Part shown: in pieces, positions 1,729 to 28,842 of the stretch | How positions within the stretch are numbered: the stretch's first letter is position 1 | Layout: the number at the start of each line of letters is the position of its first letter | Source of the DNA: Pseudogymnoascus verrucosus | Lineage: Eukaryota | DNA length: 29,648 bases | Strand: one strand, 5' to 3' | Assembly (NCBI GenBank): GCA_001662655.1 | Contig: KV460271.1 | Program-made: the position numbers and the translations under genes | Notes under the pieces: model-generated | Told to the model about the DNA's origin: nothing | Seen by the model: the letters and a program-made list of their open reading frames with translations, nothing else | Database searches by the model: none

Positions 1729-3843
1729 TCAAAATTGGTACTCACTATCTAGCATTATATCTTCGGAATTACCATCCAATAACTCAAGATGAGACCCATT
1801 GCTCGTCCAGTTAAAACTATTGTATTGCTCGGGTGTTAAATAAGGGGTATGTGTCATATATCCCAGCGAATTCATGTCATCGGACATGCCCTCGGGCATC
1901 GGAGAGTGCCCAAACTGACACTCACTCGGAAAGAACGGTGCAAGGTCGGTCATTTGTGCAACGTCTTGGTAGGTAGCATCAGCCATAACCAACGTCATAT
2001 CATCCAGCGAACCAAAGGGCTCTTGGGATAGCAGTGAAGCCTCTAACGGCTGCCATTCCGAGATCTGCGCTCTTACGGCTTTGGCCTTCTCCAACATTTC
2101 TAGCAGAAACTTGCCATTCTTTGAAGTCTTGTTATCCTCTGTCCACCGCTTGAAAGCATCTTCCGTGGCTGCCCAAGCGCGCTCAAGTGTATCGCTCTGT
2201 CGACTGTGGCAGAGTTCTTTCAAAAGAAAGGAAAGAGGATGGTATTGGAGGTACGCTGTGAGGAGCCACTTCCATCTTATGGCTTGAGGCTCTGCTTCTA
2301 GTCGACGAGGGGTGTCGACGATGTCGATGGCTGTGAGAAGTATTTGGTTCCGGGTAACGTGGATCCCAGATGAAGTATTATTCGATAGCCATTCATCATT
2401 GTATAACTTGATCCACATCTCGGAAATCATAACATAGCTGACATGCTGAGCGAGCCAGTGAATTGGTTGACTGTTGTCGCAGTACCTTAGATGATCCCTC
2501 TGTATCTTGAAGCCACACTCATTTATCATCCTTTCCTTCTGACTCTGAGAAAGATCGCTTTCAAGCGATCGACTGGTGTTGGCGATTCCAAAACGTATAA
2601 GGCAGAAGCTCATCTCAGTCCAACCTTTGCGAGCACTGGGAGCTACTGTCATGGTCGGATCTATATCCTCATCGTTGATATTCAATGGAAGCTCCCAGTC
2701 TTTCATCGGGTCAGGTGAGCAGGCATCTGTGCCATGATCATCGGATGCTCGTCGGTCAAGGTACCATAGCTGCCACTTGAGGCGCTTATGCATTTCCTTT
2801 GTGAACGGCGACGCGTCGTTAATGGGGATGCAAAGACGTCTTGCCAATCCTGTCAAGGCCCATACTAACTTTGCGTCTTGCGCGTAGCGGCTGAATGATA
2901 AGAACAGGACGAACGCTTGAAACGTGACTAGATCATCTGCCACTAAAAAATCTGCCGTGGTTAGAGCCTGCTCTGTAGCAGCTCGGTACATCGCCAGTGT
3001 CGTAGTCTTGTCCATCTTAAAGCAGTCTTCAACATCTTTGACTGGCATGCTGGAGATGGATGAGAAATAGATGGCGAACAAGAGGGCCTTCTGGCCATTG
3101 TTTAGAGAAGTCGGGTTGTTAACTGCCTTCCGAAGTACACTTTGTGCGCTTGGTGTGTGTAAAACTTTGGCAAGTTGGTCGACATTTTCTAGGAACGCTC
3201 GCCAACATATTTGAGTTTGGGCAGTTGATGGAAGCAATGATGCAGTCTCTGACGTAGAGTCATTGAATGAGAACACCCCCCCTGCCCATGAGGTATTCAT
3301 ACTCTGGCTACTTGCAAAACTCGGCTCAAAGCCATTGATAAATGTGGCTGAAGTGATTGGCCTGCCATCGAAGGGTTTAAAACCTAGCGGCTTGCCCCTG
3401 TCTCTTATAATAATCAACTTCCCTATAGCATTTTCCAGGGCCTCCAATCTTCTCGCATCTTCAGTGCCTTCTGTGAAAGCATCACCCGTCCCACCGAGCT
3501 CATGAGTCTCAGATAGAGAGCCATTATGGTCGTTGATTGAACTTGTTAGGTCTTTGAGTAACTCCTCCACCTTTTGAATCCTCTCATATAGTGATGGCGA
3601 GATATTTGCACTACCGCCCGTATCTGGGGGATATGCGATTGGCCTTTTTCGAGGCCGGGGACATCTCCTGATGGGTGACGGGTAAACGCATTCAAGTGAC
3701 CATAGCGTACAATTGGTGCAAGGTGAGCTTTTGTTGCACTTTACTTTACGCGTGCGGCAAGATATGCAAGCCTTTTGCTTTACAACTGGGGGAGCTGCGA
3801 TAGGCAAAGTTGGACCAGAAGATTTGAGGAGTCGCATAGCCAT
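1729..3843 (-). CDS. Zn(II)2Cys6 transcription factor with fungal-specific middle homology region; start probably 3843 or 3837, although the ORF is open to 3966
   Basis: CISCRTRKVKCNKSSPCTNCTLWSLEC binuclear cluster, coiled coil LYERIQKVEELL, MHR-type motifs (FLENVDQLAKVLHTP, LPLNINDEDI, WTEMSFCLIRF), acidic C-terminus; no intron needed. Confidence 0.88.
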   Translation of the reverse strand: MAMRLLKSSGPTLPIAAPPVVKQKACISCRTRKVKCNKSSPCTNCTLWSLECVYPSPIRRCPRPRKRPIAYPPDTGGSANISPSLYERIQKVEELLKDLTSSINDHNGSLSETHELGGTGDAFTEGTEDARRLEALENAIGKLIIIRDRGKPLGFKPFDGRPITSATFINGFEPSFASSQSMNTSWAGGVFSFNDSTSETASLLPSTAQTQICWRAFLENVDQLAKVLHTPSAQSVLRKAVNNPTSLNNGQKALLFAIYFSSISSMPVKDVEDCFKMDKTTTLAMYRAATEQALTTADFLVADDLVTFQAFVLFLSFSRYAQDAKLVWALTGLARRLCIPINDASPFTKEMHKRLKWQLWYLDRRASDDHGTDACSPDPMKDWELPLNINDEDIDPTMTVAPSARKGWTEMSFCLIRFGIANTSRSLESDLSQSQKERMINECGFKIQRDHLRYCDNSQPIHWLAQHVSYVMISEMWIKLYNDEWLSNNTSSGIHVTRNQILLTAIDIVDTPRRLEAEPQAIRWKWLLTAYLQYHPLSFLLKELCHSRQSDTLERAWAATEDAFKRWTEDNKTSKNGKFLLEMLEKAKAVRAQISEWQPLEASLLSQEPFGSLDDMTLVMADATYQDVAQMTDLAPFFPSECQFGHSPMPEGMSDDMNSLGYMTHTPYLTPEQYNSFNWTSNGSHLELLDGNSEDIMLDSEYQF

Positions 3844-4431
3844 AGCTAACTGAAGCCCTTGTTGTTCGGTAATTGGTGCCAGTGCGTACTGTATGAAGAA
3901 GTTGAAAAAATACAGTATGATAGCGACACAAATATACAACGGAAAACTCACGGATTTCTCTATCATTTAGAAGAATACACCTTGGGTTTGACCAAGACCG
4001 GCTACTGATACATCCGTGATGTGTCGTAAGCAGAAAGTGCTCATAACTTGTTGTGGTCGTGGCTGTGCAAATTCCCAAGACGTGCCCAAGACGGACATCT
4101 CGCATCTCTCGGTGTTTAACGACTCCCGCGATCCAATTGGTCCGCCACCAAACGAATCATCAGTCTCATCATTGTAATTATCACTTTCTCTCAAGTCAAA
4201 GTATATCAATGGGGTTCTCGGTCCTATAATCGGGCCAAGCGATGCCTTTGTCGATCAAACATTGCGTGGAATTGTATGCGCTCACAGACGTAAGCCAAGA
4301 TGGAGTCAGTTGGTATAAATGGGAGATTGTCCCTCGCCATTTACTATGATGAGCACCTTTACCAGCTTTTATCTCTAGCTTGGCTTGGATTTTTTCACGG
4401 CCTGGAAGAAAAATTTCAAGGTTAAATAAAC

Positions 4432-5238
4432 ATGAATTACTACGTCGACCCAGCTGTATTTTTCAGTTTCGTTTTTGGTAAGCAGCATTCCAATCAGTCG
4501 AGCCGTGTCGCTGCTCCGAGAACAATAGCTAACCGCAACTCTACTTACAGCATCTCTTTTTGGCAGTGTATCGGCTGGAGGGATTGTAGTCGTCGATCTC
4601 CCGTTAGTGCCAAATTATGCCAAAGCCCACGGCATACTTATGGGCCTGGCGTTGGTCGTCGTTCTACCTGGCGGAGCAATTCTCATGCGCCTTTTGAGCT
4701 CAAAAGGAAAGCCTACCGTCTGGGTTCATGTCGGCACCCAGCTTGTGGGTTGGGTGCTCATGATCTCGGGGTTGGCCATGGGTGCCAAAGTTGGGAAGAT
4801 TTTAGACAGAGTAAGCCCTCAAATATTGTTTTCACACTGCAACGTTTTGGTGACGATCATGTGGCTGAGGATACAAAGCTTGAGAACAACGCCCACACGA
4901 TTCTCGGCACAGTTGTTGTCGCCTTGTTGCTCTTTCGGCCTCTGTTCGGCTTCCTTCACCACCGGAGGTTCATGGCCACACGAAAACGAGGGAAAATGAC
5001 CCTCTTTCACGTCTGGTACGGCCGCGTCCTCATTCTTCTCGGGATGTTAAACGGCGGGTTCGGATTGAAGCTAGCTACAAACTCTCCAGGTGGAAATATA
5101 GCTTATGGGGTTGTCGCGGGGGTCATAGGTGCAACTTATGTTGCTGTGATGGTACATTTTGAGGTAACTGGTGGGAGCAAGACCAGTTCGAGGACTCCAG
5201 ATGTTCCGGAGGAAACGTCGAAATCGCAAAGCAGTTAA
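4432..5238 (+). CDS. Cytochrome b561-domain membrane protein, about 221 aa; exons 4432-4477, 4551-4810, 4879-5238
   Basis: Introns 4478-4550 (GTAAGC..GCTAAC..TACAG) and 4811-4878 (GTAAGC..CTGAG..AAAG) join two ORF-track frames in phase. Product: MNYYVDPAVFFSFVFASLFGSVSA..AHGILMG..WVHVGTQ..NAHTILG..GFLHH..FHVWYGR, with heme-ligand-type His in transmembrane helices. Confidence 0.82.
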   Translation: MNYYVDPAVFFSFVFGKQHSNQSSRVAAPRTIANRNSTYSISFWQCIGWRDCSRRSPVSAKLCQSPRHTYGPGVGRRSTWRSNSHAPFELKRKAYRLGSCRHPACGLGAHDLGVGHGCQSWEDFRQSKPSNIVFTLQRFGDDHVAEDTKLENNAHTILGTVVVALLLFRPLFGFLHHRRFMATRKRGKMTLFHVWYGRVLILLGMLNGGFGLKLATNSPGGNIAYGVVAGVIGATYVAVMVHFEVTGGSKTSSRTPDVPEETSKSQSS

Positions 5239-5547
5239 ATAAACCGACGGTATTAAATTGGTGAAGAATGATCTTTTCAAAGCGCTTGTCCTCGATAATG
5301 GATCAAGTGCCGCATTTTCAGACTCTTTGTACTTGATAGTTAATAATAGTCTTGCAATAATTAAGAGGGATAAAGATTGGCCGTATTACAAAGATGTAAC
5401 TTTTGGTATAAGCGAAACTCTTGGCAGCCGAACTGCAATGTGAGTCAAACTGAGCCAACTAACCGACCAAGGCACTCGAACAAGACAGGCTGGTCATCGA
5501 ATCGTATTCGACATTTTAAATATTATTATATTTTCGAATAAGACATA

Positions 5548-6212
5548 ATGAGTTCAGAGGATTCACCTACTCGCATACTCCTCGTCATCGATGTCCAGAG
5601 ATGCCTTCTTGGCCCTCCAAATCCGGTCCCTGGCTCGATAAAGATCCTCCGCAACCTGGAGGCTGCTCTCGCTCGAGAAAGGGCCGCTTCCCCGCCGACC
5701 AAAGGTATGCCTTACCTTCAACTTTATTATTTCCAACCTGCGGCAGAACTCCTGGCGGACAACTCTAAGACAAATACGTGGTTTGTGATAACTGACAAAA
5801 GGAAGTAATTTGGATTCGGCACAATGAAGATGATGATCCCGACTTCACCCCCAATACCACGCCATGGGAAATCGTGCAGACGGAATTATTTCGCATCCAG
5901 GAAAACGAGGTGATAGTTGATAAAACAACGCGCGATTCCTTCCACAAGACATCGTTGGGGTCACATATCGAGACTCCTGGTTTCGACCCACAGAACCTCC
6001 AGCTGGTTATCATAGGTTTACAGAGCGATTACTGTGTTCAGACTACTGCAAGAAGCGCCCTTGCAAGATATCCCTCTGCACGAGTATCACTTGTGCATGG
6101 TGCTCACGGAACATATGACGATGAAAAGGCCGGGAGGAGTGCGGAGGAAGTTTCTGAGCAAATTGAGATAGAGCTGAGGGACGAGGGGGTCATCATTGAG
6201 GACATCAACTAA
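5548..6212 (+). CDS. Isochorismatase/cysteine hydrolase family protein, about 187 aa; exons 5548-5704, 5806-6212
   Basis: Intron 5705-5805 (GTATGC..CTGAC..AAG) gives LLVIDVQ..KVIWIRH..DKTTRDSF..GLQSDYCV..HGTYD, with the Asp-Lys-Cys catalytic triad. Confidence 0.85.
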
Positions 6213-6833: not shown

Positions 6834-8308
6834 TCACACTAAAGTAAGAGGGAATCTACATTCTGGGTCCCATTTGTCCCTAATCTTTATAAATCGTTCA
6901 AACGCAGAGTCCGTCATTACCTTGGACTTTCTAAATGTAATATCGTAATCTGCTACATACATACCACATGCAACCTTCTCCGCTTCTCTATAGACGTTTT
7001 TCATCCAGTTGCGGAGAGCAGGTATTTTAGTAGGATTTTTAGTGCAGGTGAAGGTTGAGATGTAATACTGTTGAGGCAGACTGAAGGCCATTTTTCCAAC
7101 GTCTGGATAAGTGTCACCGATGTAGATGACCCCAACAGACTGTCTCGTAGGCAGCTGGGTTTGGGAAGGCTTGATTGCTTCGATCATCTGTTTAACAGCG
7201 GTTAGGGACTCGGCCATTTTTAAAGCGTCCACTAGAGGAAGAAAGAAAGGTTCTTAACGTACTTCTGGAAGCGGGATACTTGGGTCATTTAGAATACTAT
7301 CAATATGCCAAATTTCGCCGTTTCCGTAAGGAACAAGCATATCTTGTTCTTGAAACACTTCTTTCCAACTCTTGAGAATGACCGGAGCAGGACCTGCTAC
7401 AACCTCCGCCAACCCATCGGGGACATAATCGAAGGCACTAAGTAGAGTCTCGGCTTCTGATATTGAGTCGACATAGGCAGCAGCGGTAATTGACATCATC
7501 AACGACGAAGGCTCACTGATCTCATCGCTTTCGATAGTTGGATTGAACTTCTCTGGAAAAAAAGTACAAACAGCAACTTCTGTGCCATATTTAGGCGTCT
7601 TCTCATTTTGCTCGATTGCCAATGTAAGAACTTCGTTAAAGAGTTTACCATTAGGCCCTATGGAAAAAGTGCGCTGGCGTTGATAAAATTTCCGAGCTGG
7701 AATTGTTCGCGCACAGAACTTAGTCACGACCCCAAAAAACCCTTGACCAGAGCCTCTTGCCGCCCAAAAGACGTCCGCATTCTCACTGGCATTAGCTCGG
7801 ATCAAAGATCCATCTGGAACAACGACTTCCAGCTCAGTGACCCATTGATCTACGGTTGCGCCCCAACCACGCATGAAAAAGCCCTGTCCGCCAGCTAATG
7901 TGAAGCCACCCATTGCGACTGAGGGGGCGTGACCATGAGGGAAAAAACGGCCGAGTTTTCAAGCTTTTCGGATATCTCACAGACACGCACAGCTGGTCCA
8001 TAAGTTATAGTTTGCGTTTTCTCCTCGTATTCAACTTGTCGATTGAGGTTTGACGTATCTATTAAAAGGCCATCCTGCCACAAAGACATACATGTGAAAA
8101 GATGGCCACCTGAGCGAACTCCAATTGGAATTCCCAATTCCTTAGCTCTATTGACAGCGGCAATTACGTCCTGGACACAGATTGGTCGGTGAATTTCTCG
8201 GGGATATTTTGCGGGTACATTGGCATTAATGAAAGCCTTTCGAAGTTGCTCATAGTGTGGTGACCCTGGAAGGAAGACTTTTTCTGTACGCGAAATAGTA
8301 CCGGCCAT
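6834..8308 (-). pseudogene. FAD-binding (PCMH-type, BBE/6-HDNO-like) oxidoreductase with a 1-nt frameshift at about 7956-7959 (pseudogene or sequencing error); intron 7188-7262; about 466 aa if repaired
   Basis: RSGGH covalent-FAD motif in ORF 7895-8308. GRFFPHGHAPSVAMGGFTLAGGQG and FWAARGSGQGFFGVVT lie in the next frame. C-terminal KWDPECRF. The intron GTACGT..CTAAC..AACAG joins PLPE|MIEAI in phase. Confidence 0.82.
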
Positions 8309-10126
8309 CTTAGACGTGAGAGAGGCAAACTAAGAGAGCGGAAACCGAGGGAGGGAAAACAGGGACATAAGAGCCATATAAGGCTTGCTACGTCAAGTCC
8401 ATGTCACATTATTGAAGTTGTGGAATAATGCGTACTGGATGGTTGGTGTAACTCCCGATTATCATGTGGGGTTTTGCCAAGATATATGCGATGTACCCCA
8501 CTTGCGCCTACTAAAACCCCTCGCTGGATTGGTGTGGAAAGTAGCGTTGACACCTGGTGTTAGTATACCATTTGATAAGCAAGCCTGACACATCTATTCT
8601 GCAGGCATACTACACTTTAAGTGTGGTTTGAGTTTGATGTTTAGTTGAAGAGTGCTGCGCTATATCATCGACGATGTTTGTTGTACTCCAACAGCTCACC
8701 GGAGCCTAGTTTGCATACCTAGGAGCTAAGCACCGTAGGTCTAAAGGGGGAAAGCAGTACGTATATAGGTTATATGGTGACCGTTCTAGGGTAGACAGTC
8801 GTTAATCATGACTTCGTTGCGTGTCTATAGTCTCTATTTTCCCGCATTCCAACAGTGTTTGATTAACCTCGCTCGCGTGGTGAGGTCAGCGGAAGCAAAT
8901 AAAAGCCCAAGCAAGTGAGCTACGTCGCACAACGTTGAATTTTTGGCAATAAGAGTAGAGGCTGGGGAGGCTGCGTATTGCGTGCCTACGAGCGGCACAG
9001 TGTTGGTTGCCTACAGGAGGAACAAGAGCGACAGTTTGTTGGAGAATGGGGATAAGTCGACGATATGGTCGTTATTGATTACTGGGGACTTGTTGAGCTG
9101 AATAGTTCAATCAACCCGGCTTTGTTCAGCTAATGCGTTCTCACTTCAGCTAAGGCGTACTAGCTCGGCCAAGGCGTAATGTAAGTCGGCGTAACAGGGC
9201 GCTTCTATAGATCTATGATCAGTAACACCTAACGTGTATGATTATGTTGATATAAAGGGGCTTATAATACAAAGCTATGAAGGTGGTCTAGGCTATTCGT
9301 GAACTCGATCCATTCGCGAGGGGACTGGAGCAAATATATTAATATCCTATTATAGGAGCAGCGCTTTTCGAAATGTACCATAGTTTATTATCAGTGGTCT
9401 CTGAGCAGGGTAAATAGGATGTGAGATACAGTGATTGGGTTATTTGTCCTTTGATGGAATGCCAAACCCCCATTGGAATTATAAGCAAAGTGCGATGCCG
9501 AGGCGTGAGGGAAACCAATATTCTAATTTCCTTACACCACTCACGGATCTCTCCGGGTTTCACAAGTGAAATCTGTTAATTCTCATTCTTCAAGTCCGTG
9601 AGAGAGAGCTGGGGGACGAAGGGGTTATCATTAAGGGCATCAGCTGAAGGGGCTAAAGTGCACAGGACCCGACGTTTTCTCTGTAACTACATATTCAGCC
9701 ATCAGCCTCAAAGGGAAGAAAAATAGCAAAAGCATAAAACAGTGGGTATTCGCTGGTGGTCACCCACTCAACTACCAATTCACGGATCTCAAGCTTCCAG
9801 GAGATTAATACTCAGGACAGTGCAATTTGGACAAGCGGGTGAGCGTCGCCGCCCTCATGCTTTTTGATCCCCTTACGATGATCTAACTGTCTCCTTTAGC
9901 TACCTGATAACGACCATGTCGGCACGCACAAAGTGGATCTGTATGGAGACGTAATGGCTAGACCACTGGTATGTGAGTGGTGCTAGAAATGGCGGCGGTC
10001 TAATGCAGTTGTATCTGCCAGTGAAAAGTATCATTCGCTGTGATCTGATCCTGCCCACATTCTGTTCGGAACCACTTTGTACCGAACCGGCAATGAACCA
10101 CCGAAGAGGCTATAGGGGAAACTCCC

Positions 10127-10141
10127 TCGGTAAACTCGGTA
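10127..10141 (+). promoter_or_regulatory. CGG-N6-CGG direct-repeat element TCGGTAAACTCGGTA (putative Zn2Cys6 site) upstream of the DUF1254 gene
   Basis: Exact 15-bp copy also at 16648-16662; lies about 100 nt before the ATG and just upstream of TATATA-like stretches. Confidence 0.6.
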
Positions 10142-10239
10142 TGACGACCGACTTTACAGAAGCCGGACTTTATACTATATATGGATACCGACTATATATC
10201 ATATTACGACTTAATGTACTTCTTTACTAAGAACTCATA

Positions 10240-11786
10240 ATGGCTGTAGCAATGAAGATGTCACCCCTACCAAACAACAGTCACGAGAAGGAGGAGCAGC
10301 AGCATGCACTTGAATTTTCGTACATGGTAAATGAAAATAAGTCACTGTCTGCCATCGTTGGGAAAGCTGACCAAAACTTTGTATGTAGTACGGCTATCCG
10401 TTGCTTGAGTATGCGAAATATGTTGCATGTTATCCAAAAGCGTCAACCAACACGCTCTATCACGACCGGAGGCTCTCGACATCGGACGATCTCAAAGTCA
10501 TTCGACCTAATGTCGACACCTTGTACTCGACAATATTCATAGATGTTTCCTCGCACGATCTAGAAGTCACCGTTCCTTCTATCCCTGATCGATATTGGGT
10601 GTTCCCGTTCTATGATCCGTACGCAAAGCCTCACGCCATCCAAGCCAGATTTTTACCAATTGCTAATTTAGGTGATTCTTCTAGATATGGCAACAACATT
10701 GCCAACATCGGCAGCCTTCAAGGCCATAAACCGGGAAAATATCTCTTTCGCCTCGCCAGCAAAGATTTCGGCTTCTTTAGCGGACCTCCCCCGGAGGAAG
10801 CCGGCCATCATTGCAATTATCTAGGCTATATCAACTTCCCTACCGCCTATGGCATGGGTCTTATTCGTATCGCCTCAACGCCGGCCACTGAAGACCAGAA
10901 AATAGTCAACGTATATCAAGACCAGATCCACGTGACTCCAGTCAAGCGCCTGGATCTACAGCCCGTCGCTCCGGCTTTGGATCTCTCTCTGCTCATAACA
11001 CCAGCGTATCGCGTATCGGGCGAAAACTCTGCGGCACATGTGGTTTTGGCTTTAACCGCAGCGTTCGCAGCTCACAATCAATCCGCGGTCATTCAAGACC
11101 GGCCTTGGATCGCTGACCTCCTTGCTAAGAGTGGCATTGAACAAGGCATCTCTGGAAAGACAGACCTTTCACAAATTCATGAATATGCCGAAGCTCAAGC
11201 AGTTAAACTTGCCCGGTCTCCTAATGGTAGGCGGGAATATGGTAACGGCTGGAGTGAACTCTTCCCGGGTTGCAAAGGCAACTTTAATTCCTTTTACCAG
11301 GCGAGGTATGCAGTTGGGAAAAAGGGCTATTTGGCACTCACTAAAGACCAAGCACTTTACCCGTCTCTCGCCGCCCCTCTGATAATTGGAGCTAATGAAG
11401 CAGTCCTTCTCCGCTTTTCACGTCGACCGGCTCTAGTCCCTAGCGGATTCTGGAGCCTCACAGCGTACAATTCCGAACAGTACCTTGTCCCTAACAGGAT
11501 AAACAGGTACTGTCTTGGAGACCGCGATGATATGAGATTTGCCGATGGCAGTTCACTGGCCGATCATACCAAGGATGGCGAATTTCATATCCTGTTACAG
11601 CCGGCGGACCTTCCCCCACCGTGGGGATGGTTGAATAACTGGCTACCGGCACCGGCAGGAGGAGGAAAGTTGTCCATCACGATGAGATGGTACGGCGCCA
11701 TGGAGGAGATGATGAGCGGATCGTACGAGTGTCCTAAGATTGAACACATCAGTGCTATCACAGGGTCGCCTGTATCGAGGATGTAA
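10240..11786 (+). CDS. DUF1254/DUF1214 domain protein, about 472 aa; exons 10240-10326, 10389-10618, 10685-11786; C-terminal PTS1-like SRM
   Basis: Spliced product YMYGYPL..VIRPNVDTLYS..DRYWVFPFYDPYGNN (DUF1254) and GFWSLTAY..NWLPAP..TMRWY (DUF1214). Introns 10327-10388 (GTAAAT..CTGAC..TAG) and 10619-10684 (GTACGC..CTAAT..TAG, 66 nt, in frame). Confidence 0.85.
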
Positions 11787-11996
11787 AAGCGAAGCTGTGG
11801 AGCTCGCTAGTAGTCGCTATTGATGATTTCTTTTCGATAGAAATACTATATTTTATCGTCGCCTATCTGTCTCTGCCCTCCTATCCCGAGAATCTGTGGA
11901 CAGGCACCTCTTGGTTATCTCGCTCTACTGTATAGCAGGAGTATTTTGAGAATGTCTAAGAAGAAGAAGCATAATAACTGATTCCTCTGGCTCAGA

Positions 11997-13883
11997 TCAT
12001 GCATAGTCTAGTAGGTCGATGTCGTCAAAACCAAATATATTTGCTATTGGCCAGTCGACATAATTGTTAAAAAATCCGTCAACTAGGTCTTCTGCTTCTA
12101 TAGCATCAAGTAGCTCTAGCCTTGGAGATAGCGTTTTTGGAAAGGGGAATAGTTCGTGGACCCTCAACACTGTCAAGTGCGGTTCGGGGTTTGGCTCTGA
12201 CATATTCCTGTGTGCAGAGCTAGATGAAGCTGATGAGGGATCATTGTTTTGTGAGAGAACCTCTAGTTTTAGATGCTCAATTTTGCTGACGATGGCTTTT
12301 GAGCCCGGGAATTTAAAGCCCCTCTGTCTTAAAATATCCACAAGAGTATCGAGCTCTTCCAAGGACGAAGGTCGATGATCTGAAGAATTCCCTGGTGCAT
12401 CAATGCCCCGATTCTCTCTGGGAATGTTGTCGAGCTGCGGAAGTGAGGCCGCCATCATAGACCAGTTGTTAATAGCAGTTAGATAGTTGATGTCATCATG
12501 GTAATCCATTTCTTGGTAGAGTGCAATGATGCACGAGGAAGCCACAAGCGAGATGGAGGACGCAACTGAAAGCTGGAAGTATTTCCCGAAGTTGTGAAAA
12601 TATGTTATGATACACGTGAGATAACAGGCGAGATACTCGTAAAATTCGCGGTGATAAACTTTATTGCCTTGATCATCACATATCCGAAAGACAGCCGAGG
12701 TGCTAAACGCCCAAGTCCTTAAATCTTCAAGAACACACAACAGTTCCTCGGAAGCGGATGAGAATTCGGCATCTTTAGCGCTGAGCATTCTTGCATAGAT
12801 CTTCGCTAGTTCTGTCCAGAGAATGAATGAGTGAGCCTGATCGTTTTCGCAACCACTGAAGTCCGCTAGTGAGAGCGGACGCAGGTTGAATTCTTGCGTC
12901 CGAAGCATCTGGGGCCGGCCAAAGCAGGCGGCCTGCATCTTGTCTTGGGCATAGAGATACCACGCTATCCTACGAGCACAGCTCGGTGTGGATCTCTGGA
13001 AGTGCGTCGACTCACGATGAAGACCCATCTGGGTTGCGAGGCGCATTGCGAGTCCTAGCCAATTCCAGCTGCAGTCAATCGTAACCACCGATGGGGGTTT
13101 GACATTCCAGAGAGTGAAGAAACACAAGGTTTTGAGCGTAGTAAGCGGCTCTTTCTCATGATTCAGGAAGAACAGTATCTTAGCTTTAGCATAGTGTTCT
13201 TCGAGTTTTTGAAGGTCTTTCATCGATTTCGGATGACGAAGGAATGATCCCACAAAGCATAACGATTGTAACAGCAGAGTTGACGGGCAGGGAGTAGTAA
13301 TATCTTGACGATCCATGATTGGGATGCGATGGTACAGGTACTTGAAGTAGGCAGCGCTTGACGCATCAAGTACTGATTGCGAGGGTAACTGATCGGCTCC
13401 GGTGGCAATGACAGTCTGTATCTCGAGCGACGTCGAAAAGGAGCCTAGAGTAGCAGTGCTGTCGGAAGTCAAGGGGCCATGGTTCGACATGACTGAACAG
13501 TCTCCGATATAGCCGCCATCAGTAGGTGCAGTAAGACGAGGAGTTTGACTAAGGCGGTGTTCGCTCTCATCAATATGCTCGACGGTTGAGGGTGATTCTA
13601 GCGCGTCATTTGTTAAAGGCGGCGTCGCAGCAACATCAGGGCGCCTATCCAGTGGGAAAACCGATGTGGCTGGGTCTGGCGAACGGCGATAAGGTTGTCT
13701 TCGGGTATGTTCTCTTCTCTGACAATGTTCATCTCGCTTTTCACAGTTGGTACAGCTATCAGAAGTGTACCTTCTCGCGAGCAAGTCGCATTTGACTTTT
13801 CTCGCGTGACATCGTTTGCAAACGACTCTCGATCTGTCTCGTGGTGTTCTAGAGTGGCTAGGCGGACTAGACTCTGTAACCAT
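11997..13883 (-). CDS. Zn(II)2Cys6 transcription factor with fungal-specific domain (resembles the Ctf1-beta-like group), 628 aa, intronless
   Basis: CKRCHARKVKC..CTNCEKRDEHC cluster; MHR motif WLGLAMRLATQMGLHRE..RRIAWYLYAQD..GRP. Confidence 0.88.
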   Translation of the reverse strand: MVTESSPPSHSRTPRDRSRVVCKRCHARKVKCDLLARRYTSDSCTNCEKRDEHCQRREHTRRQPYRRSPDPATSVFPLDRRPDVAATPPLTNDALESPSTVEHIDESEHRLSQTPRLTAPTDGGYIGDCSVMSNHGPLTSDSTATLGSFSTSLEIQTVIATGADQLPSQSVLDASSAAYFKYLYHRIPIMDRQDITTPCPSTLLLQSLCFVGSFLRHPKSMKDLQKLEEHYAKAKILFFLNHEKEPLTTLKTLCFFTLWNVKPPSVVTIDCSWNWLGLAMRLATQMGLHRESTHFQRSTPSCARRIAWYLYAQDKMQAACFGRPQMLRTQEFNLRPLSLADFSGCENDQAHSFILWTELAKIYARMLSAKDAEFSSASEELLCVLEDLRTWAFSTSAVFRICDDQGNKVYHREFYEYLACYLTCIITYFHNFGKYFQLSVASSISLVASSCIIALYQEMDYHDDINYLTAINNWSMMAASLPQLDNIPRENRGIDAPGNSSDHRPSSLEELDTLVDILRQRGFKFPGSKAIVSKIEHLKLEVLSQNNDPSSASSSSAHRNMSEPNPEPHLTVLRVHELFPFPKTLSPRLELLDAIEAEDLVDGFFNNYVDWPIANIFGFDDIDLLDYA

Positions 13884-14219
13884 GGTTAATGGACAGGTAG
13901 ATTTCTGGGAAGTAGAAACAAGTAATAAGAACGTTTGTCCTTGAGGCTACACCCTGGGATATGGGATAACTTGGATGAAGACACCAACCAAAAGCTTAGT
14001 CACATAAGCCTAGCCAAGTACCCCGCATATTCCACGTGGTTCCGCTGCAGGCACCTCGGCTGTTGAATTCCAGGAGCTACTTCAACCCCATCTGGCTTCC
14101 ACACGAGTTTCTGTGAGGCGTAGACATTAACTTATATAGACGAAGGTAATTAAATGTGATAATTCACTTCCTCTAGAATCAAATAAAGCTACTCTAAGAA
14201 TTGATTATTTTGATAGTAT

Positions 14220-16142
14220 CTATATGTAACTCTGCAGCTGGTTCTTGACTTTGCTAGTAATTGATGCGAACGACAGAAGCTTATTAAGAGCCTGTACGTC
14301 ACCCTTAAGGTCGAGGATATCGCTGCTGCTGCTCTTGCTGTTCAAGAGTCGGCACAATCCGATTTTATTCAGCGTCAGGGCAAGGTCGGGCTCAGTTCTG
14401 TTAGAGGACCGTTCTCCGTTCGGTTGACTGCGGTATGTCAAAGCACCATTACTCAAAATTAACCTCCAGTCCTCACTAATGTCCCTGACATGAATATCAA
14501 TGCAGAAAGGCTTCTCTTCTTTCCCAGCTTCCTGTCCATCAATTGTGATAGAGAGTGCGCCAAACCATTGTTCTACGGACAGGTTCGGTGCAAAAGCCGC
14601 CATCCCAGATGAGTTCTTTCCTTGGGCTCTCTTGCCATTCATCAGGTCCACCGACTGACTCAAGTAGAAGTTCCTCCAAGTCGCGTTCTCAGCTCCAAAC
14701 CCTAGTTTCTCGAACACATTTGCCAGCAGGTTTTTGCATTGCAAATGTGCGATTGCATCGTTCCCAGGTTCGTCACCCGCTGCGACGACGTGGCCCAGTA
14801 ATGTCGCCGCGAATCTCAGATCTCCCTGAGATATAAATACCTGAGACTTTTTCAAGACTTCCTCCGCGCCGCCCATGCATGCTACATACCTAGCACCCTC
14901 TTCTTTCGGTGGCCACTTCCACAAATTCTCTGCTGATCCGTCGAACCAAGTCATGTAACGCTGGTAGATTGCCTTGACATTGTGGCTCACGCTTCCATAG
15001 AATCCTTGCGTATGCCACTCGCGACTCAGGCTTGGTGGAAGCACCATTCTTTCTGCGATTTCTGTCCCGTTCCATCCCTGGTTCATTTGCCTCACTGTTT
15101 GATCGTGGATAAACGCATAGAGGTCTCTTTGTTGCGCTAAAAACTTCTTGATCTTGTCGGCCCCCCAGGTTGGCCAGGCATGGCTTCCAAACTGAACATT
15201 CGACTTAGCATCTTCGCAGTACAACAGTAATGTTTCATCCAGATATCTACTCCACGCTTTGGCATCCCTTACTAAGGCACCTCTGAGTGTCGCTATATTG
15301 TGCAGCGCGTGGGTCGCGCACTCTGCAACCAATAGGGCTCTTTCGTCAGGAAAATAGATGTTTAATTCCGCAGGTGCTTCTGTATTCGGTACCATTTGGA
15401 ACGTCATCCGGACTCCGTCGATAGTCAAGGTCTGTCCCGTCTGTGTAATGTTGATAGTGGGTGGCACGAGGCTTGTTGTACCATGCGAGGTGGCCATGCC
15501 GAGGCCGACGCCGATTTGGCCCTTGGGAGACTTCGGAAGTTGAGAGCCGTACATATGTCTAGCTCGCTGCCGCATGATAGGCCCAGCGAAAATGTTCTCG
15601 GACGTAGCCTCTTCCATGAAATATTCTGGGGCAATTATTGGGACCGGGGCTGTGTCGTTATCGTTTGTGACAGGAGGCAAGACGCCTGAGGCGCCACCAA
15701 AATGATCAATATGCGAATGCGTGTAAATGATAGCCTTGACAGGGCGGACTCCTTGGTGCTTGTAGTATAGTTCTCTTGCGGCAGCAGCACATTCGCAAGA
15801 AATCAAAGGGTCGATTATAATGATACCCGTCTTGCCCTCGACGAAAGTAATGTGTGATATGTCAAAACCACGGACTTGGTAGATGGATGAACTGATGCGA
15901 TACAATCCCTGCTTGGACAGCAATTGAGCCTGGCGCCATAACTTAGGGTTCACTGTTTCTGGACACGGCTGCTGATGAAGGAAATTGAACTCGTCATTGT
16001 CCCAGACGGTGTCTCCACGGGCGTTTTTGATGACACACGGATTGAGCGATCCTACAAACCCGCGGTCTGCGTCTATGAAGTCTGCCGTGTCTTCGAACGA
16101 AGGAGAGATATTTTCGGACAATTGAGAAGTGGATGGATCCAT
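14220..16142 (-). CDS. Alkyl/aryl sulfatase of the SdsA1/Bds1 family (metallo-beta-lactamase domain, dimerisation domain, SCP2-like C-terminus), 640 aa, intronless
   Basis: DFIDADRGF, PETVNPKLWRQAQL, IYQVRGFDIS, YTHSHIDHFGG (HxHxDH), TEAPAE, HNIATLRGALVRD, FYGSVSHNVKAIYQRYMTWFDG, AENATWRNFYL. Confidence 0.93.
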   Translation of the reverse strand: MDPSTSQLSENISPSFEDTADFIDADRGFVGSLNPCVIKNARGDTVWDNDEFNFLHQQPCPETVNPKLWRQAQLLSKQGLYRISSSIYQVRGFDISHITFVEGKTGIIIIDPLISCECAAAARELYYKHQGVRPVKAIIYTHSHIDHFGGASGVLPPVTNDNDTAPVPIIAPEYFMEEATSENIFAGPIMRQRARHMYGSQLPKSPKGQIGVGLGMATSHGTTSLVPPTINITQTGQTLTIDGVRMTFQMVPNTEAPAELNIYFPDERALLVAECATHALHNIATLRGALVRDAKAWSRYLDETLLLYCEDAKSNVQFGSHAWPTWGADKIKKFLAQQRDLYAFIHDQTVRQMNQGWNGTEIAERMVLPPSLSREWHTQGFYGSVSHNVKAIYQRYMTWFDGSAENLWKWPPKEEGARYVACMGGAEEVLKKSQVFISQGDLRFAATLLGHVVAAGDEPGNDAIAHLQCKNLLANVFEKLGFGAENATWRNFYLSQSVDLMNGKRAQGKNSSGMAAFAPNLSVEQWFGALSITIDGQEAGKEEKPFCIDIHVRDISEDWRLILSNGALTYRSQPNGERSSNRTEPDLALTLNKIGLCRLLNSKSSSSDILDLKGDVQALNKLLSFASITSKVKNQLQSYI

Positions 16143-16346
16143 GATGAACGTTTTGGGTTGCAGGTTGCTGACTATGAGGTTGCTAACTCTGAAGGTAAAT
16201 CTATCAAGGAGAGAGAGGTTATCGGTTTCGCGTGTTCAAATACATATTCACTCTAAACAATTTAAGGCCGAGGTTTGATGTCTCTCGTCATCGTCACCAT
16301 ACTGCCGAATACCGAAAATTGATAACGTAGTCGATAACAAGAGGAA

Positions 16347-16662
16347 TCGGCAACCTCGGAACTATGTTTCCTAATAAGGATTAGGCTGCGGAGTCGGTAC
16401 ACTTCCATATTAGGACTAGTAGCTCTAATTTATGAGCCGAGGGAGATATCGTACGAAAACAATAGTTTCCATAGAACTAGTGTGGTTGGAGAACAAAAAA
16501 TAAAGAACCTGTAATATACCCCGCATACACTCTGACACGTAAATCCACCAAATTGTTGTGGAAACTTGGAGGCGACCTCCAGCCACAGACGAATGCTTTG
16601 TGGGGTTTTGCGGGGTTTTGCGGGGAAGTGGGGAAGAAGAATGAGCTTCGGTAAACTCGGTA
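16347..16662. promoter_or_regulatory. Divergent sulfatase/MFS promoter: CGG-N6-CGG sites (16347-16359, 16648-16662) and a SYGGRG cluster (16600-16633)
   Basis: TCGGCAACCTCGG and TCGGTAAACTCGG; GTGGGG-TTTT-GCGGGG-TTTT-GCGGGG-AA-GTGGGG. Confidence 0.55.
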
Positions 16663-16943
16663 GCCCTGAAGGTTTTTGGCACCAAAGACCTGAAATATAT
16701 GATCTATATATCTAAGTTCGACCAAACAAACTGGCTGGTCACATCGTAGGACTTCCCTCACTCACACGACTATACTCGTAAGATTTACAGCACGACCTCT
16801 CCCATTTAAGGCTTCAATTACGCCTCCCCAAAGGATATAGTTCGACTTCTAGACAAGCTTGTACTAGCTTCAGACTCTTGGAAAGACCGAAGAATCTCTC
16901 TCGAAACAATATAATGCGATAAAAAAAATAGAGCCTTGGAAAC

Positions 16944-18635
16944 ATGTCTCAAAGTGAATCATACGCCGAGAAGGACGCGGAAAAAAATGTCCTACAGGTT
17001 GAGGCAACGGACCTAAAACAGGATACCACCTGTGAGGATGAAGATCTCGGTATCTCCTATGCTGAGGGAAGAAAAATTATCCATAAGATAGATCGACGTC
17101 TTATTTCAGCTTTGGGTCTCATGTTTGGGGTTTCTCTCATGGATCGAACCAACCTGGGCTCTGCTAACATTGCTGGTATGGCAAAGGAGCTGCACCTAGC
17201 AATTGGAAATCGCTACGTAAGTCTAGCATGGCAACCCCTAAACCGCAGGATCTAGGGCTAACTATCGCAAGTCCATTGCCATTATTATGTTCTTCGTTCC
17301 GTACCTTATTTTCCAGTGGCCTAGTGCTATTCTTGCACGCCAGATCGGCCCTCGGATTTTCCTACCTGCTGTGTCGTTTGCCTGGGGCATCGTCATGTTG
17401 GGCATGGGATTTGTACATCACTGGGGCGAGTTAGTCGCTCTTCGAGCGGTTGTTGGTCTTTTCGAAGCCGCCTTATTACCAGGAGCACTGTTTCTATTGC
17501 AAATGTGGTATTGTCGCTGTGTGTATTCTTCTTTCCTCTGGGCGTAAATCTAGGACATGCTAACTTTGCGCCTCAGACGATGTGCATAAGCGATACGCAT
17601 CGTTCTATCTTATCAGCGTTGTCGGAGCATCACTTTCCGGGGTACTTTCTTATGGCTTTATGCAAATGGCAGGCGTTGGCGGCTATGGAGGCTGGAGGTA
17701 CATTTTCATCTGGGAAGGAGTGCTAACGTGTGTCATCGCTATTATCGGGGCCATTTTGATCGTCGACTTTCCTCAAAAAGCGCAGAATAGCCGGAAGTTT
17801 CTCGAACCTCGTGAGCTGGAATACGTTATCAAACTTCTACAAAGAGATCGTAACGATACTCATGAAGAGCCCTTCAACTGGGCCGCATTTTTCAAGGCAG
17901 GCTTGGACCTCAAGATCTGGCTGTTTGGGCTTATATTCTTGTAAGTATCAGACGGTATATGACAGGATGAAAATATCTCTGACAGGTTCTAGCGCTAACA
18001 CTGTGATCGCGTACGCAATCGCGCTTTTCCTCCCCATCATTCTGCATCAGAAGATGGGTTTTGGCGTTGGGATCTCACAAGTGATGATAACCCCACCATA
18101 CATCTTCGCGGGCATCTTCATGTACGTTCAAGGCTGGTTCGGAGATAAGTACCATGTCCGTGGCCCGATCGTTGTATTCAATGCGTTACTGGGAACTTGC
18201 GGGTTGTGCCTGATGGCTTGGGTCAAAGCTGCAGGTTGGCAGTATTTCGGCGTGTTTCTGGTTACAGCAACTTCCAATTCCTCAATACCAACCGTCATGG
18301 CATACCAGGCAAACAACATCCGTGGAACATGGAAGCGCGCCTCTAGCAGCGCGATCTTGGTTACAATGGGAGCAGCAGGTGGTATCGTTGGCGCGTTAGT
18401 ATTCCGAGCTCAAGATGCACCTCAATACCTTCCTGGTATGTATGCATCCATCGCGTAAGTCAATTTCCCTTGCTGCTGACTCTACAAACGCGGTGGACTG
18501 ATATGTTGCAGGTGCTGTATACTACAAGTGTTTATTGTTGGCGTTCTGTCTCTACAGTTTAGTAGAATGAACAAGAAAGTCGCCAATGGAGAGGCCATCA
18601 TCGAGGGCTTGCCAGGTTTTCTCTATACCTTGTAG
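16944..18635 (+). CDS. MFS transporter, anion:cation symporter (Dal5/Tna1-like) family, about 489 aa; exons 16944-17216, 17272-17518, 17577-17940, 17993-18454, 18512-18635
   Basis: KIDRRL..MDRTNLGSANIAG, LRAVVGLFEA, GWRYIFIWEG, ANNIRGTWKR, FRAQDAPQY, C-terminal GFLYTL. Four 52-58 nt GT-AG introns with CTAAC/CTGAC/CTGAT branch sites restore one frame. Confidence 0.9.
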
Positions 18636-19117: not shown

Positions 19118-19957
19118 TCATTTCCACCCAGAACTCATCTCCACCCCTCCGGTCAAAACATTGCACTGACCTTTCCCAACACAGCTGTGCAAATTCCCCT
19201 GCCTCAGCGTATCCTGCTGGCCTGACACCGTATCTATCAAATTCGAAATGACTCGCAACCTCTCACTCCAACTCCTAACCCCCCTCGTCTGCCCCATCAC
19301 CGCCAGCGGGCCCACAAAATTGCTCAGCATGAGCACTGACTCCTCCTCTGCCGGCTTACCCTTCCATAAACCCATATACTCCAGTATATCCCCCCTAAAG
19401 CTCATCAGCCACGGATGAACCGTCGTCAGGTAATCGTGCACGCTGACAAAGTCCCTCCCGTCCAAGGGCGTTACTACAAGTCTCGCCGTCTTCCCACGCG
19501 GCCGGTCCGTCCCGCAGCACCGCAGCAGACACGGCCTCTCGCCGTATCCAGGCAGCATGCCGTACTGCGGGGCCGCGGTGAGCTGCCAGTTAGGCTCGGA
19601 GTGGCCACGGTGGCATAGTAACCACTCGTCCTCCCAATACTCGAGCGCAAAGACGCGCACTAAAATTGAGGGGACCGGCGGCTTGGTCATGGGCGTCTGC
19701 GAGATGGCGTGCCAGGTGCTGGTGCCTTCGGCGGTGAGCTGAAGGTACAGCTCGATGGAGGTGGGGTTGTCGCGTTTGTCCAGCACCCAGATGGAGGTGG
19801 AGAGAGGGCCGTTGGGGGTGCAGAAGATGCGTTCACTGGAGGCGGAGTCGGTGAAGTGCTGCTGCTCTTGGGTGGCACGAGCCCGCATTTGCGCATCGGG
19901 TCCGTCATCTCCCTGGATCCGCAATCGCTCTGAAATATCGAAAGATGATGACATCAT
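19118..19957 (-). CDS. Hypothetical protein, 279 aa (3' end uncertain)
   Basis: GC-rich 840-nt ORF between AT-rich flanks; contains LLRCCG..FVSVHDYLTTVHPWL; no function recognised. Confidence 0.6.
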   Translation of the reverse strand: MMSSSFDISERLRIQGDDGPDAQMRARATQEQQHFTDSASSERIFCTPNGPLSTSIWVLDKRDNPTSIELYLQLTAEGTSTWHAISQTPMTKPPVPSILVRVFALEYWEDEWLLCHRGHSEPNWQLTAAPQYGMLPGYGERPCLLRCCGTDRPRGKTARLVVTPLDGRDFVSVHDYLTTVHPWLMSFRGDILEYMGLWKGKPAEEESVLMLSNFVGPLAVMGQTRGVRSWSERLRVISNLIDTVSGQQDTLRQGNLHSCVGKGQCNVLTGGVEMSSGWK

Positions 19958-20701
19958 GAAGAAGCAGCAAATCGATAAATAAGATTCTGGGTAGGTTGAA
20001 GTCTTATGTCTAGTTTAAATGCGAATGATTTACTTGTATATATTTTTGTTTGGTAGAAGGACGTTAGTTTTAGATTATTGGTTTAATTAGGCTGCGTGCG
20101 GCGCAGCAATTGTAATGCTTAATATTCAGCTAGCTAATAATTATTCGAGATTTTATTTATAACGTGTTATTTTTCCTTTTTTAATTATCCTTTGGTGTCC
20201 ACCGCTTTTGCCAATGGCTGTATTCCCGTCTTTGTCTTCTTGTGTTCCGTGTTCAGCTTTCGGTGCTTGATGAATATACTAGCTATCGTAGCCACAACAG
20301 CCAAAGACCGCAGTTGTGGCCCCGAAGCGCTGCATCTCTAGGTTTCCCCACACGGGCTTAGCCTGGGGTGGGGATGCGGGTGCGGTATTACGGGTTGTGC
20401 AACAAGATGGATAGTACACTTTGCAGCGCTGCCTCAAAAAGGGGGAGGGCTAGTAAATAAGGTCGCGGCCCGAAGCGCTCCGCAAACGCATCATCGAAAC
20501 CGTGTACTGTGCGGACCGCCATGCGGTAGGAGACGATGGGGAGATGACAAAGAATAGGCGCGTTGCACTGCGGGGTTAGCTCGGGGTAGCGCTTGGGGGC
20601 GGGGCTTACGTATTGGCGATCAAACTTCGGTGCTGATACGAGAAAAACACGAAAGTGACGCCAAACTAACACGAAAATGTTGCATCGCCTTACTCAGAGT
20701 A

Positions 20702-21473
20702 CACAGGTAAGCAGACCATTAGGTGACCTAACCCCCCCCCCTAACCTCAGCTGACCTAGAAATGCTCCACTTATTAAGTAGGGGGGTTAGCCAGCCTCTA
20801 CTAAGACTGTATTACTTACATGACATAGTTAGGTTAGGTTAGAACTACTATATAATAGAGCGTAATTCTAGTAAAGTTATAAAGTATTCATTCTGTTAGT
20901 AATTATGTTATAATGTATTACTAATACATTATAATAGACAACTTAATATTACTACTAGAGGTAAAGTTATAGTTAAGCCTAATTATAATTATTAGTAGTC
21001 TTTAATGTAAAGATAAAAGATACTAAGAGGAATATAAGGATATAAGGCACTAGCTTATAGTAATAGCATATAAGAGTATAAGTCTAAAGGGTTATAGGTG
21101 CTATCCTATAAGTCTACTATAAAGGATATAAAAAAGATAAAAAGGGAACTTATTAAGTCTATTCCTCTAAGTATCTAAAATAGGTCTAACTTAGTTAGCT
21201 AGCCCTTAGCTCCTTATATATAACTACCTTAGCTCTAAGTCTAATCCTAAGAATGTCTAGAGGATAAGGTATCTTTATACTACCTCCCTCCTATAAGAGT
21301 ACTTTATCCTTAAAGTAAGTTATATCTATAATGTCTCTAAATAGTATCTATTTATTATAGGTATAGCTAAAGGCCCTATCTTAGGGGTAATGTAGGCTAG
21401 GGAATTAGGGCTAGGGGACTAGTGCCTTAGGCATCTATTACTAGTTAATGCTTATATGCCTATATACCCTATG
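20702..21473. repeat. RIP-degraded repeat of unidentified class
   Basis: Abrupt shift to AT-rich, TpA-rich, CpA/TpG-poor sequence; inverted CTAACCCCCC (20728-20737) / GGGGGGTTAG (20781-20790); no ORF. Confidence 0.5.
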
Positions 21474-21665
21474 TGTAACGCTAGGCCTTAAACTATAAGA
21501 CTTATAGAGGTTTTGTTACGTTAGTTTACTTAATAAAGGAGGTAGGGGATTAGACACTAAAGGCTTTTATAAAACACATTATAGTATATAACAAATACTA
21601 TATTAAGTTAAGTATAAAGCTCCTACCTAAGAACTATCCATCTACTTATATAGTAGCATTATGCT
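21474..21665 (-). repeat. Partial LTR related to the Gypsy LTRs (matches their first ~190 nt as read on +)
   Basis: TGTAACGCTAGGCCTTAAACTATAAGACTTATAGAGG.. is near-identical to 22207.. and 28843.. Confidence 0.8.
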
Positions 21666-21676
21666 TAATGTATAAC

Positions 21677-21933
21677 TATAACGCTAGGTCCTAAACTATA
21701 AGACTTATAGAGGTTTTGTTGCGTTAGTTTACTTAATAGAGGAGGCAGGGGATTAGACACTAAAGGCTTTTATAAAACACGTTATAGTATATAACAAAAT
21801 ACTATATTAAGTTAAGTATAAAGCTCCTATCTAAGAAATAACTATCTACTTATATAGTAGCGTTGTGCTAAAGGGAATAGTTAGAATAGTAGACTCTCTA
21901 ACTATTCTTACTATTCCTACTATTCTAATTACA
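21677..21933 (-). repeat. Short solo-LTR-like copy (about 257 bp) sharing ~195 nt with the Gypsy LTR but with a different remainder
   Basis: Starts TATAACGCTAGG and ends ATTACA, consistent with RIP-altered TGTAAC..GTTACA termini; diverges from the 546-bp LTR after ..GCTAAAGG (about 21874). Confidence 0.65.
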
Positions 21934-21948
21934 TGTGTGTCCTATAAG

Positions 21949-22090
21949 AGGTGCTATACTTATTATAGGTACTAATTCCTATAGGTGCCTTTCTAAGGAG
22001 GCACCTTACTCTATATAGGTGCCTTTTCTAATAGGCACCTCTCTTTTACTAGGTACCTTCTAAGAAAGGTACCTTTTCCTAAAGGTGCCC
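21949..22090. repeat. Array of AGGTGCCT/AGGCACCT/AGGTACCT inverted motifs with 34-bp period
   Basis: 8-bp arm / 8-nt spacer / 8-bp arm units at 21983-22006, 22017-22040 and 22051-22074; degenerate motifs at 21949, 21967 and 22083. Confidence 0.75.
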
Positions 22091-22206
22091 TTATTAACTA
22101 AGCTACCTACAATCTCTACGTCCATTTCCTACTGCTAATTAGCTATAAGCTATTTTACCTTATTATTCTATCTTATAGCATATAGGTTGCATGTTTTAGC
22201 TGTAAC

Positions 22207-28794: not shown

Positions 28795-28842
28795 GTTTGC
28801 TTTATGTTATAAGCTAGTACCTTATAGAAGTAGTGCTTAAAG

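Follow-up and report, generated by a model that had tools for sequence, protein, structure and literature searches.

The Pezizomycotina have catabolic gene clusters governed by Zn2Cys6 regulators, for quinate, proline and similar compounds, and Zn2Cys6 proteins bind spaced CGG triplets. SdsA1 of Pseudomonas, a type III alkyl sulfatase, allows growth with sodium dodecyl sulfate as carbon source (PMC5426288). In fungi, enzymes of this type are reported to be sporadic, and by 2018 only Bds1 of Saccharomyces had been characterised (PMC5857272); MaAts of Metarhizium acridum has followed (PMC8951457), and three Fusarium species are listed in PMC5610705 without a Bds1 orthologue. BDS1 is syntenic with SOA2, which encodes a Dal5-family transporter, and sulfur starvation elicits a response from the two genes alike (PMC5303821, PMC5857272). 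Here we describe a locus in a 29,648-nucleotide stretch of Pseudogymnoascus verrucosus DNA (the window), the final 29.6 kb of contig C66 of genome G000, whose proteins are 94-99% identical to Pseudogymnoascus proteins. An earlier reading made from the sequence alone (the sequence-only reading) had proposed that five contiguous genes here serve the use of alkyl sulfates. We find that four of them, encoding a Zn2Cys6 regulator, a major facilitator superfamily (MFS) transporter, an alkyl sulfatase and a DUF1254/DUF1214 protein, form a genuine, conserved module that is probably co-regulated and probably directed to the peroxisome.

Between 6.8 and 18.6 kb the window holds five coding regions, in the order and on the strands that had been proposed, with the corresponding Pfam domains: a flavin adenine dinucleotide (FAD) oxidase (-), the DUF1254/DUF1214 gene (+), the Zn2Cys6 gene (-), the sulfatase gene (-) and the MFS gene (+). 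The last four are open, but the frame of the oxidase is broken. The sulfatase gene (14220..16142) is intronless and encodes 640 amino acids ending in SYI. The regulator gene (11997..13883), also intronless, begins 336 bp past the sulfatase stop, directly downstream as the sequence-only reading had it, and encodes 628 amino acids. Its Fungal_trans domain is clear (E 7e-18), and its Zn_clus match (E 4e-4) scores 20.7, slightly below the cut-off of 21. The DUF1254/DUF1214 gene (10240..11786) has two introns (exons 10240-10326, 10389-10618 and 10685-11786) and encodes 472 amino acids ending in SRM, in an open gene model with both Pfam domains. The transporter, putatively of the anion:cation-symporter type, is encoded at 16944..18635 in a stop-free model with four introns (exons 16944-17216, 17272-17518, 17577-17940, 17993-18454 and 18512-18635; 489 amino acids). 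MFS_1 exceeds its cut-off in two of four exon open reading frames (ORFs), and TIGR00893, the best NCBIfam model, when matched to single exons falls far short of a cut-off set for whole proteins. The sulfatase and MFS genes lie head to head, 801 bp apart, which bears out the divergent promoter of about 800 bp that had been noted.

The sulfatase matches SdsA1, Pisa1, SdsAP and YjcS over nearly its full length, with E values of 1e-133 to 1e-152. It has the three expected domains: metallo-beta-lactamase (MBL; PF00753, Lactamase_B), dimerisation (PF14863, Alkyl_sulf_dimr; 171 bits) and SCP2-like C-terminal (PF14864, Alkyl_sulf_C; 59 bits). Residues N282, R287 and R292, which we take to have a sulfate-binding role, align with N307, R312 and R317 of SdsA1 and are conserved in 76 of 76 rows of the alignment. 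The binuclear zinc ligands H142, H144, D146, H147, E255, E274 and H321 also align with SdsA1 and are kept in 75-76 of the 76 rows; they make up the ligand set described for type III sulfatases, HxHxDH, two Glu and His (PMC5426288). The same source gives a Tyr/Gly pair as the mark of the primary-alkyl enzymes SdsA1 and SdsAP, against Ser/Phe in the secondary-alkyl enzyme Pisa1. The fungal enzyme has Y198 and G215, corresponding to Tyr223 and Gly240 of SdsA1, where Pisa1 has Ser233 and Phe250. These active-site residues support alkyl-sulfatase chemistry of the primary-alkyl type, in agreement with the sequence-only reading. That reading had also seen no signal peptide, and indeed we found no hydrophobic N-terminus, as checked on a 99% identical relative (P0001). 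The best plasmid matches of the sulfatase are actinobacterial, at 47-53%. Three actinobacterial sulfatase neighbourhoods gave no hint of substrate; a SulP transporter gene lies nearby in two of the three. G000 carries a second SdsA1-type sulfatase at C71:3526-5288 (L004), 51-55% identical, whose frame is broken twice and whose C-terminus is shortened. It is probably a pseudogene, and none of the other cluster genes was found in the 20 kb examined around it.

We then considered the promoters, which had been said to share motifs. They do: the 15-mer TCGGTAAACTCGGTA occurs at 10127 and 16648, and only 2 of 1000 shuffled promoter pairs shared at least 15 bases. It coincides with a CGG-N6-CGG direct repeat at 10126..10141 (+), 99 bp ahead of the DUF start codon, and at 16647..16662 (+) in the divergent promoter, 282 bp ahead of the MFS start. 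A weaker copy with three mismatches lies at 16347..16361 (+), 205 bp from the sulfatase start. When region limits are set by us from ORF lists, the repeat is present in all ten promoters of enzyme or transporter genes that we examined in the window and in four related fungal loci, L008-L011 (nine without the duplicate, because L009 repeats L008), and in none of four regions upstream of the regulators. Its form is nearly always YTCGGTA repeated at 9 bp, that is, TCGGTA-N3-TCGGTA. Single-region P values run from <0.002 to 0.32 and are weak alone; the evidence for the motif comes from its consistency across orders, not from single regions. The strict pattern has six sites in the 30 Mb of G000, two of them in the cluster. 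We rejected the other four as pointers to further regulon members, since they do not exceed a reversed-pattern control (10) and their neighbours have no clear link. We infer that the cluster's regulator binds the TCGGTA-N3-TCGGTA repeat, and we consider it very likely that the cluster is co-regulated.

The unit is not confined to Pseudogymnoascus. Reading synteny from the order of accessions and locus tags and from metagenome contigs, we found sulfatase, regulator and DUF genes to be consecutive in Cadophora (PVH72077/78/79), Aspergillus ambiguus (KAL4894137/38/39), Penicillium lagena (N7510_004159/160/161) and Pseudogymnoascus VKM F-3775 (V491_00274/5/6), and to share one 51-kb contig in A. 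sclerotialis. The sulfatase gene adjoins the regulator gene in Cladophialophora immunda (OQV03093/94) and is two numbers from it in Exophiala aquamarina (A1O9_05496/05498). The regulator has 36 close relatives at 44% or more, many of them encoded next to a DUF or sulfatase gene, and it adjoins the DUF gene in five Onygenales, P. cosmopolitanum and P. waksmanii. Scanning metagenomes with the alignment of regulators, we obtained 19 loci; five match at 47-50%, and three of those have full 10-kb flanks. L008 holds sulfatase, MFS and regulator genes, an 8-kb gap resembling the product of repeat-induced point mutation (RIP), and the DUF gene; L009 repeats part of it. L010 has the order ligase, sulfatase, MFS, regulator, DUF, and L011 the order regulator, DUF, MFS, ligase; as L011 has no sulfatase gene, we take DUF, MFS and regulator to be the core. 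The MFS copies in L008-L011 are 54-70% identical. The four genes recur side by side in distant fungi, in Leotiomycetes, Eurotiales and Chaetothyriales; the oxidase has no match in L008-L012. Beyond what had been read from the window, there is a recurrent extra member elsewhere, a gene resembling acetoacetate-coenzyme A (CoA) ligase, which carries the same motif in two of the three long related loci, with three copies ahead of the L011 ligase. Acetoacetate-CoA ligase models give the ligases their best scores, which come from partial exons and stay under the cut-off. This gene led us to consider a route from acesulfame through a sulfatase to acetoacetate. We dropped it: as far as the available sources describe them, its enzymes belong either to an MBL type that depends on Mn or to another kind of sulfatase, and such a route would be too recent for a cluster of this age.

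Maximum-likelihood trees built from named rows place the sulfatases of Leotiomycetes, and likewise their regulators, with those of E. aquamarina and C. immunda (support 100/99 and 100/100), and forcing the Eurotiomycete rows together is rejected (approximately unbiased test, p-AU 0.00025 and 0.0066); the sulfatase group was named after the first tree was seen, and sampling is thin. At least two versions exist in Chaetothyriales. The history may have been one of block transfer or one of old paralogy followed by loss.

The C-termini of the enzymes point to a compartment. DUF proteins at least 48% identical form one branch (14 of 14 rows; Shimodaira-Hasegawa approximate likelihood ratio test 100, in a quick tree of 70 rows with midpoint root). 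Under a relaxed pattern of our own, 25 of 27 members of this clade end in a tripeptide like peroxisomal targeting signal type 1 (PTS1), against 0 of 93 more distant fungal members. A hydrophobic N-terminus is found in none of 12 full-length clade proteins, versus 59 of 78 others. The window DUF end, SRM, fits the consensus quoted in PMC12316961. By the same relaxed pattern, 25 of the 28 closest sulfatases have PTS1-like ends, with SHL, SNL and SRL among the relatives, and the ligases end in ARL and ARI; among regulators only 2 of 40 do so. Because such ends extend clade-wide and signal peptides are missing, the chemistry is probably peroxisomal, and a peroxisomal or dual location appears more likely than a cytosolic one. 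The sequence-only reading had proposed import, then desulfation in the cytosol and later breakdown in the peroxisome. The peroxisomal end of that route is supported; the cytosolic site is doubtful for a sulfatase clade with PTS1-like ends.

The DUF1254/DUF1214 protein is the sole DUF1254 match in G000. Its model (predicted local distance difference test 90.8) has the fold of VPA0106/VPA0735 and superposes on 3u07 with Z 28.2 and a root mean square deviation of 4.5 over 374 aligned residues. Above Z 5, a fold search with this model returned just uncharacterised family members; glycosidase-like matches reached Z 4.8 at most and were uninformative, and the ESM Atlas added no information. Across 104 fungal and bacterial sequences N70, R167 and R313 are invariant and D72, Y75 and R440 nearly so, and W362 is also conserved across kingdoms. 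Such invariance of polar residues is as expected of an active site. We also examined bacterial DUF loci, taking the best 80 of 264, counting sulfatases within 6 kb and excluding one weak match (L045). Formylglycine (FGly)-type sulfatase genes occur in 8 of the 80, where counts over whole genomes predict 1.35-2.64 (P 5e-5 to 0.004); SdsA1-type genes occur in 2. Four of the eight FGly-type loci are from Chloroflexota and probably related; counted as five events, P is 0.01-0.12. Directly upstream and on the same strand lie five FGly-type genes, where 0.1-0.2 are expected, and one SdsA1-type gene. Since 70 of the 80 loci have no sulfatase, the link between DUF proteins and sulfatases is real at most for a minority. 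The loci near sulfatases of either type include L055, L056, L057, L063, L072, L102, L047 and L034, and those of Chloroflexota additionally hold a sodium/bile-acid symporter gene.

Our preferred reading, held with moderate confidence, is that the four genes make up an inducible module that lets the fungus draw carbon from a small sulfate ester. The Zn2Cys6 protein would bind its repeat and switch on the MFS, sulfatase and DUF genes, and the ligase-like gene where present. The transporter would import an organic anion of small size, the likeliest candidate being a primary alkyl sulfate in which a short carboxylic acid is present or from which one is released. The three enzymes, namely the sulfatase, the DUF protein and the ligase, would reside wholly or partly in the peroxisome. 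The sulfate would be removed by SdsA1-type zinc hydrolysis, with the DUF protein at a neighbouring step. The carbon skeleton would then be activated to a CoA ester and consumed. Taken separately, a sulfate-ester substrate seems reasonably likely, and carbon rather than sulfur as the purpose about equally so.

Several observations weigh against this reading. No sulfatase named from the five Onygenales and two Penicillium genomes is among the best 120 of 7998 matches, and L011 has none within 10 kb on either side; hence the substrate could be something other than a sulfate ester. The window cluster has no ligase, and the best ligase match in G000, at 50%, lies on contig C6 with no CGG-N6-CGG in the stretch examined. 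The divergent promoter has five SYGGGG sites at 16519..16633 versus 0.9 expected (p 0.002), presumably the CreA-like carbon-repression consensus, but four of them form a 10-bp tandem array at 16597-16625, so that the excess rests on one array and the sites are not independent. As for the compartment, the strict PTS1 pattern fits only 12 of the 28 sulfatases and 9 of the 27 DUF proteins, the relaxed one being our own choice, and the signal is not cluster-specific: the next 92 sulfatases (P0029-P0120) have 60 relaxed and 21 strict fits, which makes such ends widespread among the type III sulfatases of Pezizomycotina. The window sulfatase itself ends in a weak form, SYI, that fits only an extended plant formula; in A. 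nidulans a similar tripeptide, SYM, has weak targeting activity (PMC12316961). Finally, PMC4634964 states that a PF06742 gene of Chlamydomonas is induced when sulfur is depleted, a report that we could not follow to its origin and that favours a function in sulfur use.

The loci without a sulfatase bring up a different arrangement, in which regulator, MFS and DUF protein, with or without the ligase, serve a non-sulfated organic acid, and the sulfatase plays an accessory part, either releasing that acid from a precursor that bears a sulfate group or attacking the ester of a different oxyanion. L011, with everything but the sulfatase, fits this arrangement, as do the seven named genomes with a regulator-DUF pair and no listed sulfatase, and E. 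oligosperma, where sulfatase (LTS17_009586) and DUF (LTS17_001751) genes are far apart. The sulfatase and regulator trees, however, agree where both are sampled, and the sulfatase uses a motif-bearing promoter in the window, L008 and L010. Its apparent absence elsewhere was judged from the best 120 of 7998 matches, many of them unnamed records. This arrangement seems improbable to us.

A second alternative is a sulfur-scavenging module like yeast BDS1-SOA2, in which the cell takes up the ester and splits it to obtain sulfate, with the carbon incidental. The synteny and starvation response of that pair favour it, as do the Chlamydomonas report and the sulfatases near 10 of the best 80 of 264 bacterial DUF loci. 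The fungal cluster, by contrast, possesses its own Zn2Cys6 regulator and motif, a CoA ligase gene preceded by that motif in related loci, peroxisomal tags and CreA-like sites. The sequence ATGRYRYCAT, which we take to be the CYS3/MetR consensus, occurs in none of 14 intergenic regions (the whole window has two, both outside the cluster), and TCACGTG occurs in only 1 of the 14. Furthermore, an indirect check on accession order did not place the transporter among the sulfonate and sulfate-ester transporters of the Soa1/AstA orthologue list (PMC5303821, supplement 2): in the three genomes checked, none of its entries adjoins cluster genes. That list has no KFY781xx or KFZ069xx accession, and its single E. 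aquamarina entry is A1O9_09238. We consider sulfur scavenging unlikely, and carbon use remains our preferred purpose.

It is also conceivable, though we regard it as doubtful, that DUF1254/DUF1214 proteins themselves process sulfate esters, as a further sulfatase class or an obligate sulfatase partner. In these fungi a secreted member would have been re-routed to the peroxisome, and the cluster would then have moved as a block between Chaetothyriales and Leotiomycetes. This would explain why bacterial DUF genes adjoin two unrelated sulfatase folds, why the Chlamydomonas gene reportedly responds to sulfur depletion, and why a fungal cluster can lose its SdsA1-type gene and keep the DUF gene.

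The fifth gene, the FAD-binding (PCMH) oxidase at 6834..8308 (-), had been read as oxidising the released alcohol. Its frame breaks at 7955 inside PF01565, the first frame stopping after 137 amino acids. We rejected an assembly slip, since the X1 contigs, with a depth of 192 and possibly from the very source of the window DNA, agree with the window there. Three of three related runs (X2, X3 and X6) have one extra base at 7955 and an open frame, and the break is a strain-specific mutation. A route in which the oxidase is a Pseudogymnoascus-specific recruit would draw on these open frames, on the divergent spacer it has in common with the DUF gene and on the 13-mer TGTGGGGTTTTGC at 8465 and 16599. 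Yet the gene is broken in the very strain where the other four are open, and it has neither a PTS1 nor a motif near its start; the nearest copy is 1819 bp away, with a dispersed repeat in between. We found no match to it in any of the five related fungal loci L008-L012 at E up to 1. Of ten of its nearest representatives, those with names come from Exophiala sideris, E. viscosa, Bisporella, Dactylonectria, Cercospora and Elsinoe; we saw the cluster in none of these genomes. As a conserved member we rejected it. It most likely lies outside the conserved unit, probably as a local neighbour and broken bystander, and the five-gene route is very improbable.

The dispersed repeat, about 150 bp at 9719..9865 between the oxidase and the DUF promoter, recurs at least 40 times in G000 (of 90 candidates 40 were scored, and all 40 matched); one copy is at C71:5589-5728, 300 bp from the second sulfatase. 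Sequencing depth spikes at it in all four runs; X2, X3 and X6 cover both flanks of the repeat (itself at 9.72-9.86 kb), and no single contig spans it. Rfam gave no match to it even at E 1. One half resembles what we take to be the 3' part of fungal 5S rRNA, and the repeat may be a 5S-derived short interspersed element or an interrupted 5S gene.

The cluster is located in an accessory region at the contig end. From 20800 to 29648 the window is AT-rich with a strong RIP signature (TpA/ApT 1.95) and has no ORF of 80 amino acids. A GC-rich ORF at 19118-20014 (-; 298 amino acids) has no Pfam match. By Pfam, positions 690-6212 hold a microbial-type PARG/macro-domain gene, a second Zn2Cys6 regulator, a cytochrome b561-like gene across two frames and an isochorismatase-family gene; none of these has a match as a neighbour within L008-L011. 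An Rfam search of the whole window gave no match.

The large and uncharacterised DUF1254/DUF1214 family gains a context open to testing, with a regulator, a probable binding motif, partner enzymes and a probable compartment. The data also suggest that many mould alkyl sulfatases are peroxisomal and maybe serve carbon use, whereas Bds1, the best-studied fungal one, serves sulfur supply. The motif makes a simple reporter screen possible, and the inducer, if found, would name a natural sulfate ester eaten by soil, cave and rock fungi. Our literature searches, which left most subscription journals outside, covered fungal alkyl-sulfatase clusters and peroxisomes, SdsA1/Bds1, ligase with sulfatase and Pseudogymnoascus sulfatase, and did not find the four-gene unit. 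Nor did they find a paper naming DUF1254 together with DUF1214, and none of the titles listed for papers naming either one concerns sulfatases. The sequence-only reading knew of no such combination in fungi; in the literature searched this holds for the four-gene unit, but Bds1 has already been described in Saccharomyces alongside a Dal5-family transporter (PMC5303821).

Among known systems, Pseudomonas SdsA1 and SdsAP resemble the window sulfatase in their three domains, zinc ligands, oxyanion arginines and Tyr/Gly pair. SdsAP carries a signal peptide (PMC5426288), whereas the fungal clade lacks one and has PTS1-like tripeptides at its end. MaAts is likewise a fungal type III sulfatase, of 629 amino acids, without a signal peptide (PMC8951457); it was studied for stress tolerance, and the available text does not contain the words 'cluster' or 'peroxisom'. 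In Saccharomyces, BDS1 with SOA2 (YOL162W/YOL163W) likewise sets a type III alkyl sulfatase beside a Dal5-family MFS protein (PMC5303821). Those are sulfur-starvation genes, and in the parts of the source available no Zn2Cys6, DUF1254 or ligase gene is reported there; the window transporter was not found in the Soa1/AstA list by the indirect check on accession order. Bds1 came from proteobacteria (PMC5857272), whereas the best plasmid matches of the window sulfatase are actinobacterial. The cluster's DUF protein resembles the VPA0106/VPA0735 family in both Pfam domains, in fold and in the conserved N70, D72, Y75, R167, R313, W362 and R440. PMC4634964 describes a secreted PF06742 protein of Malassezia, modelled there as a glycosyl hydrolase; the cluster clade, in contrast, has PTS1-like ends and no signal peptide. 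As for the Zn2Cys6-regulated catabolic clusters of the Pezizomycotina, our searches did not find the gene content of the window among them, but the cluster is like them in having a pathway-specific regulator, a permease, enzymes and a common CGG motif.

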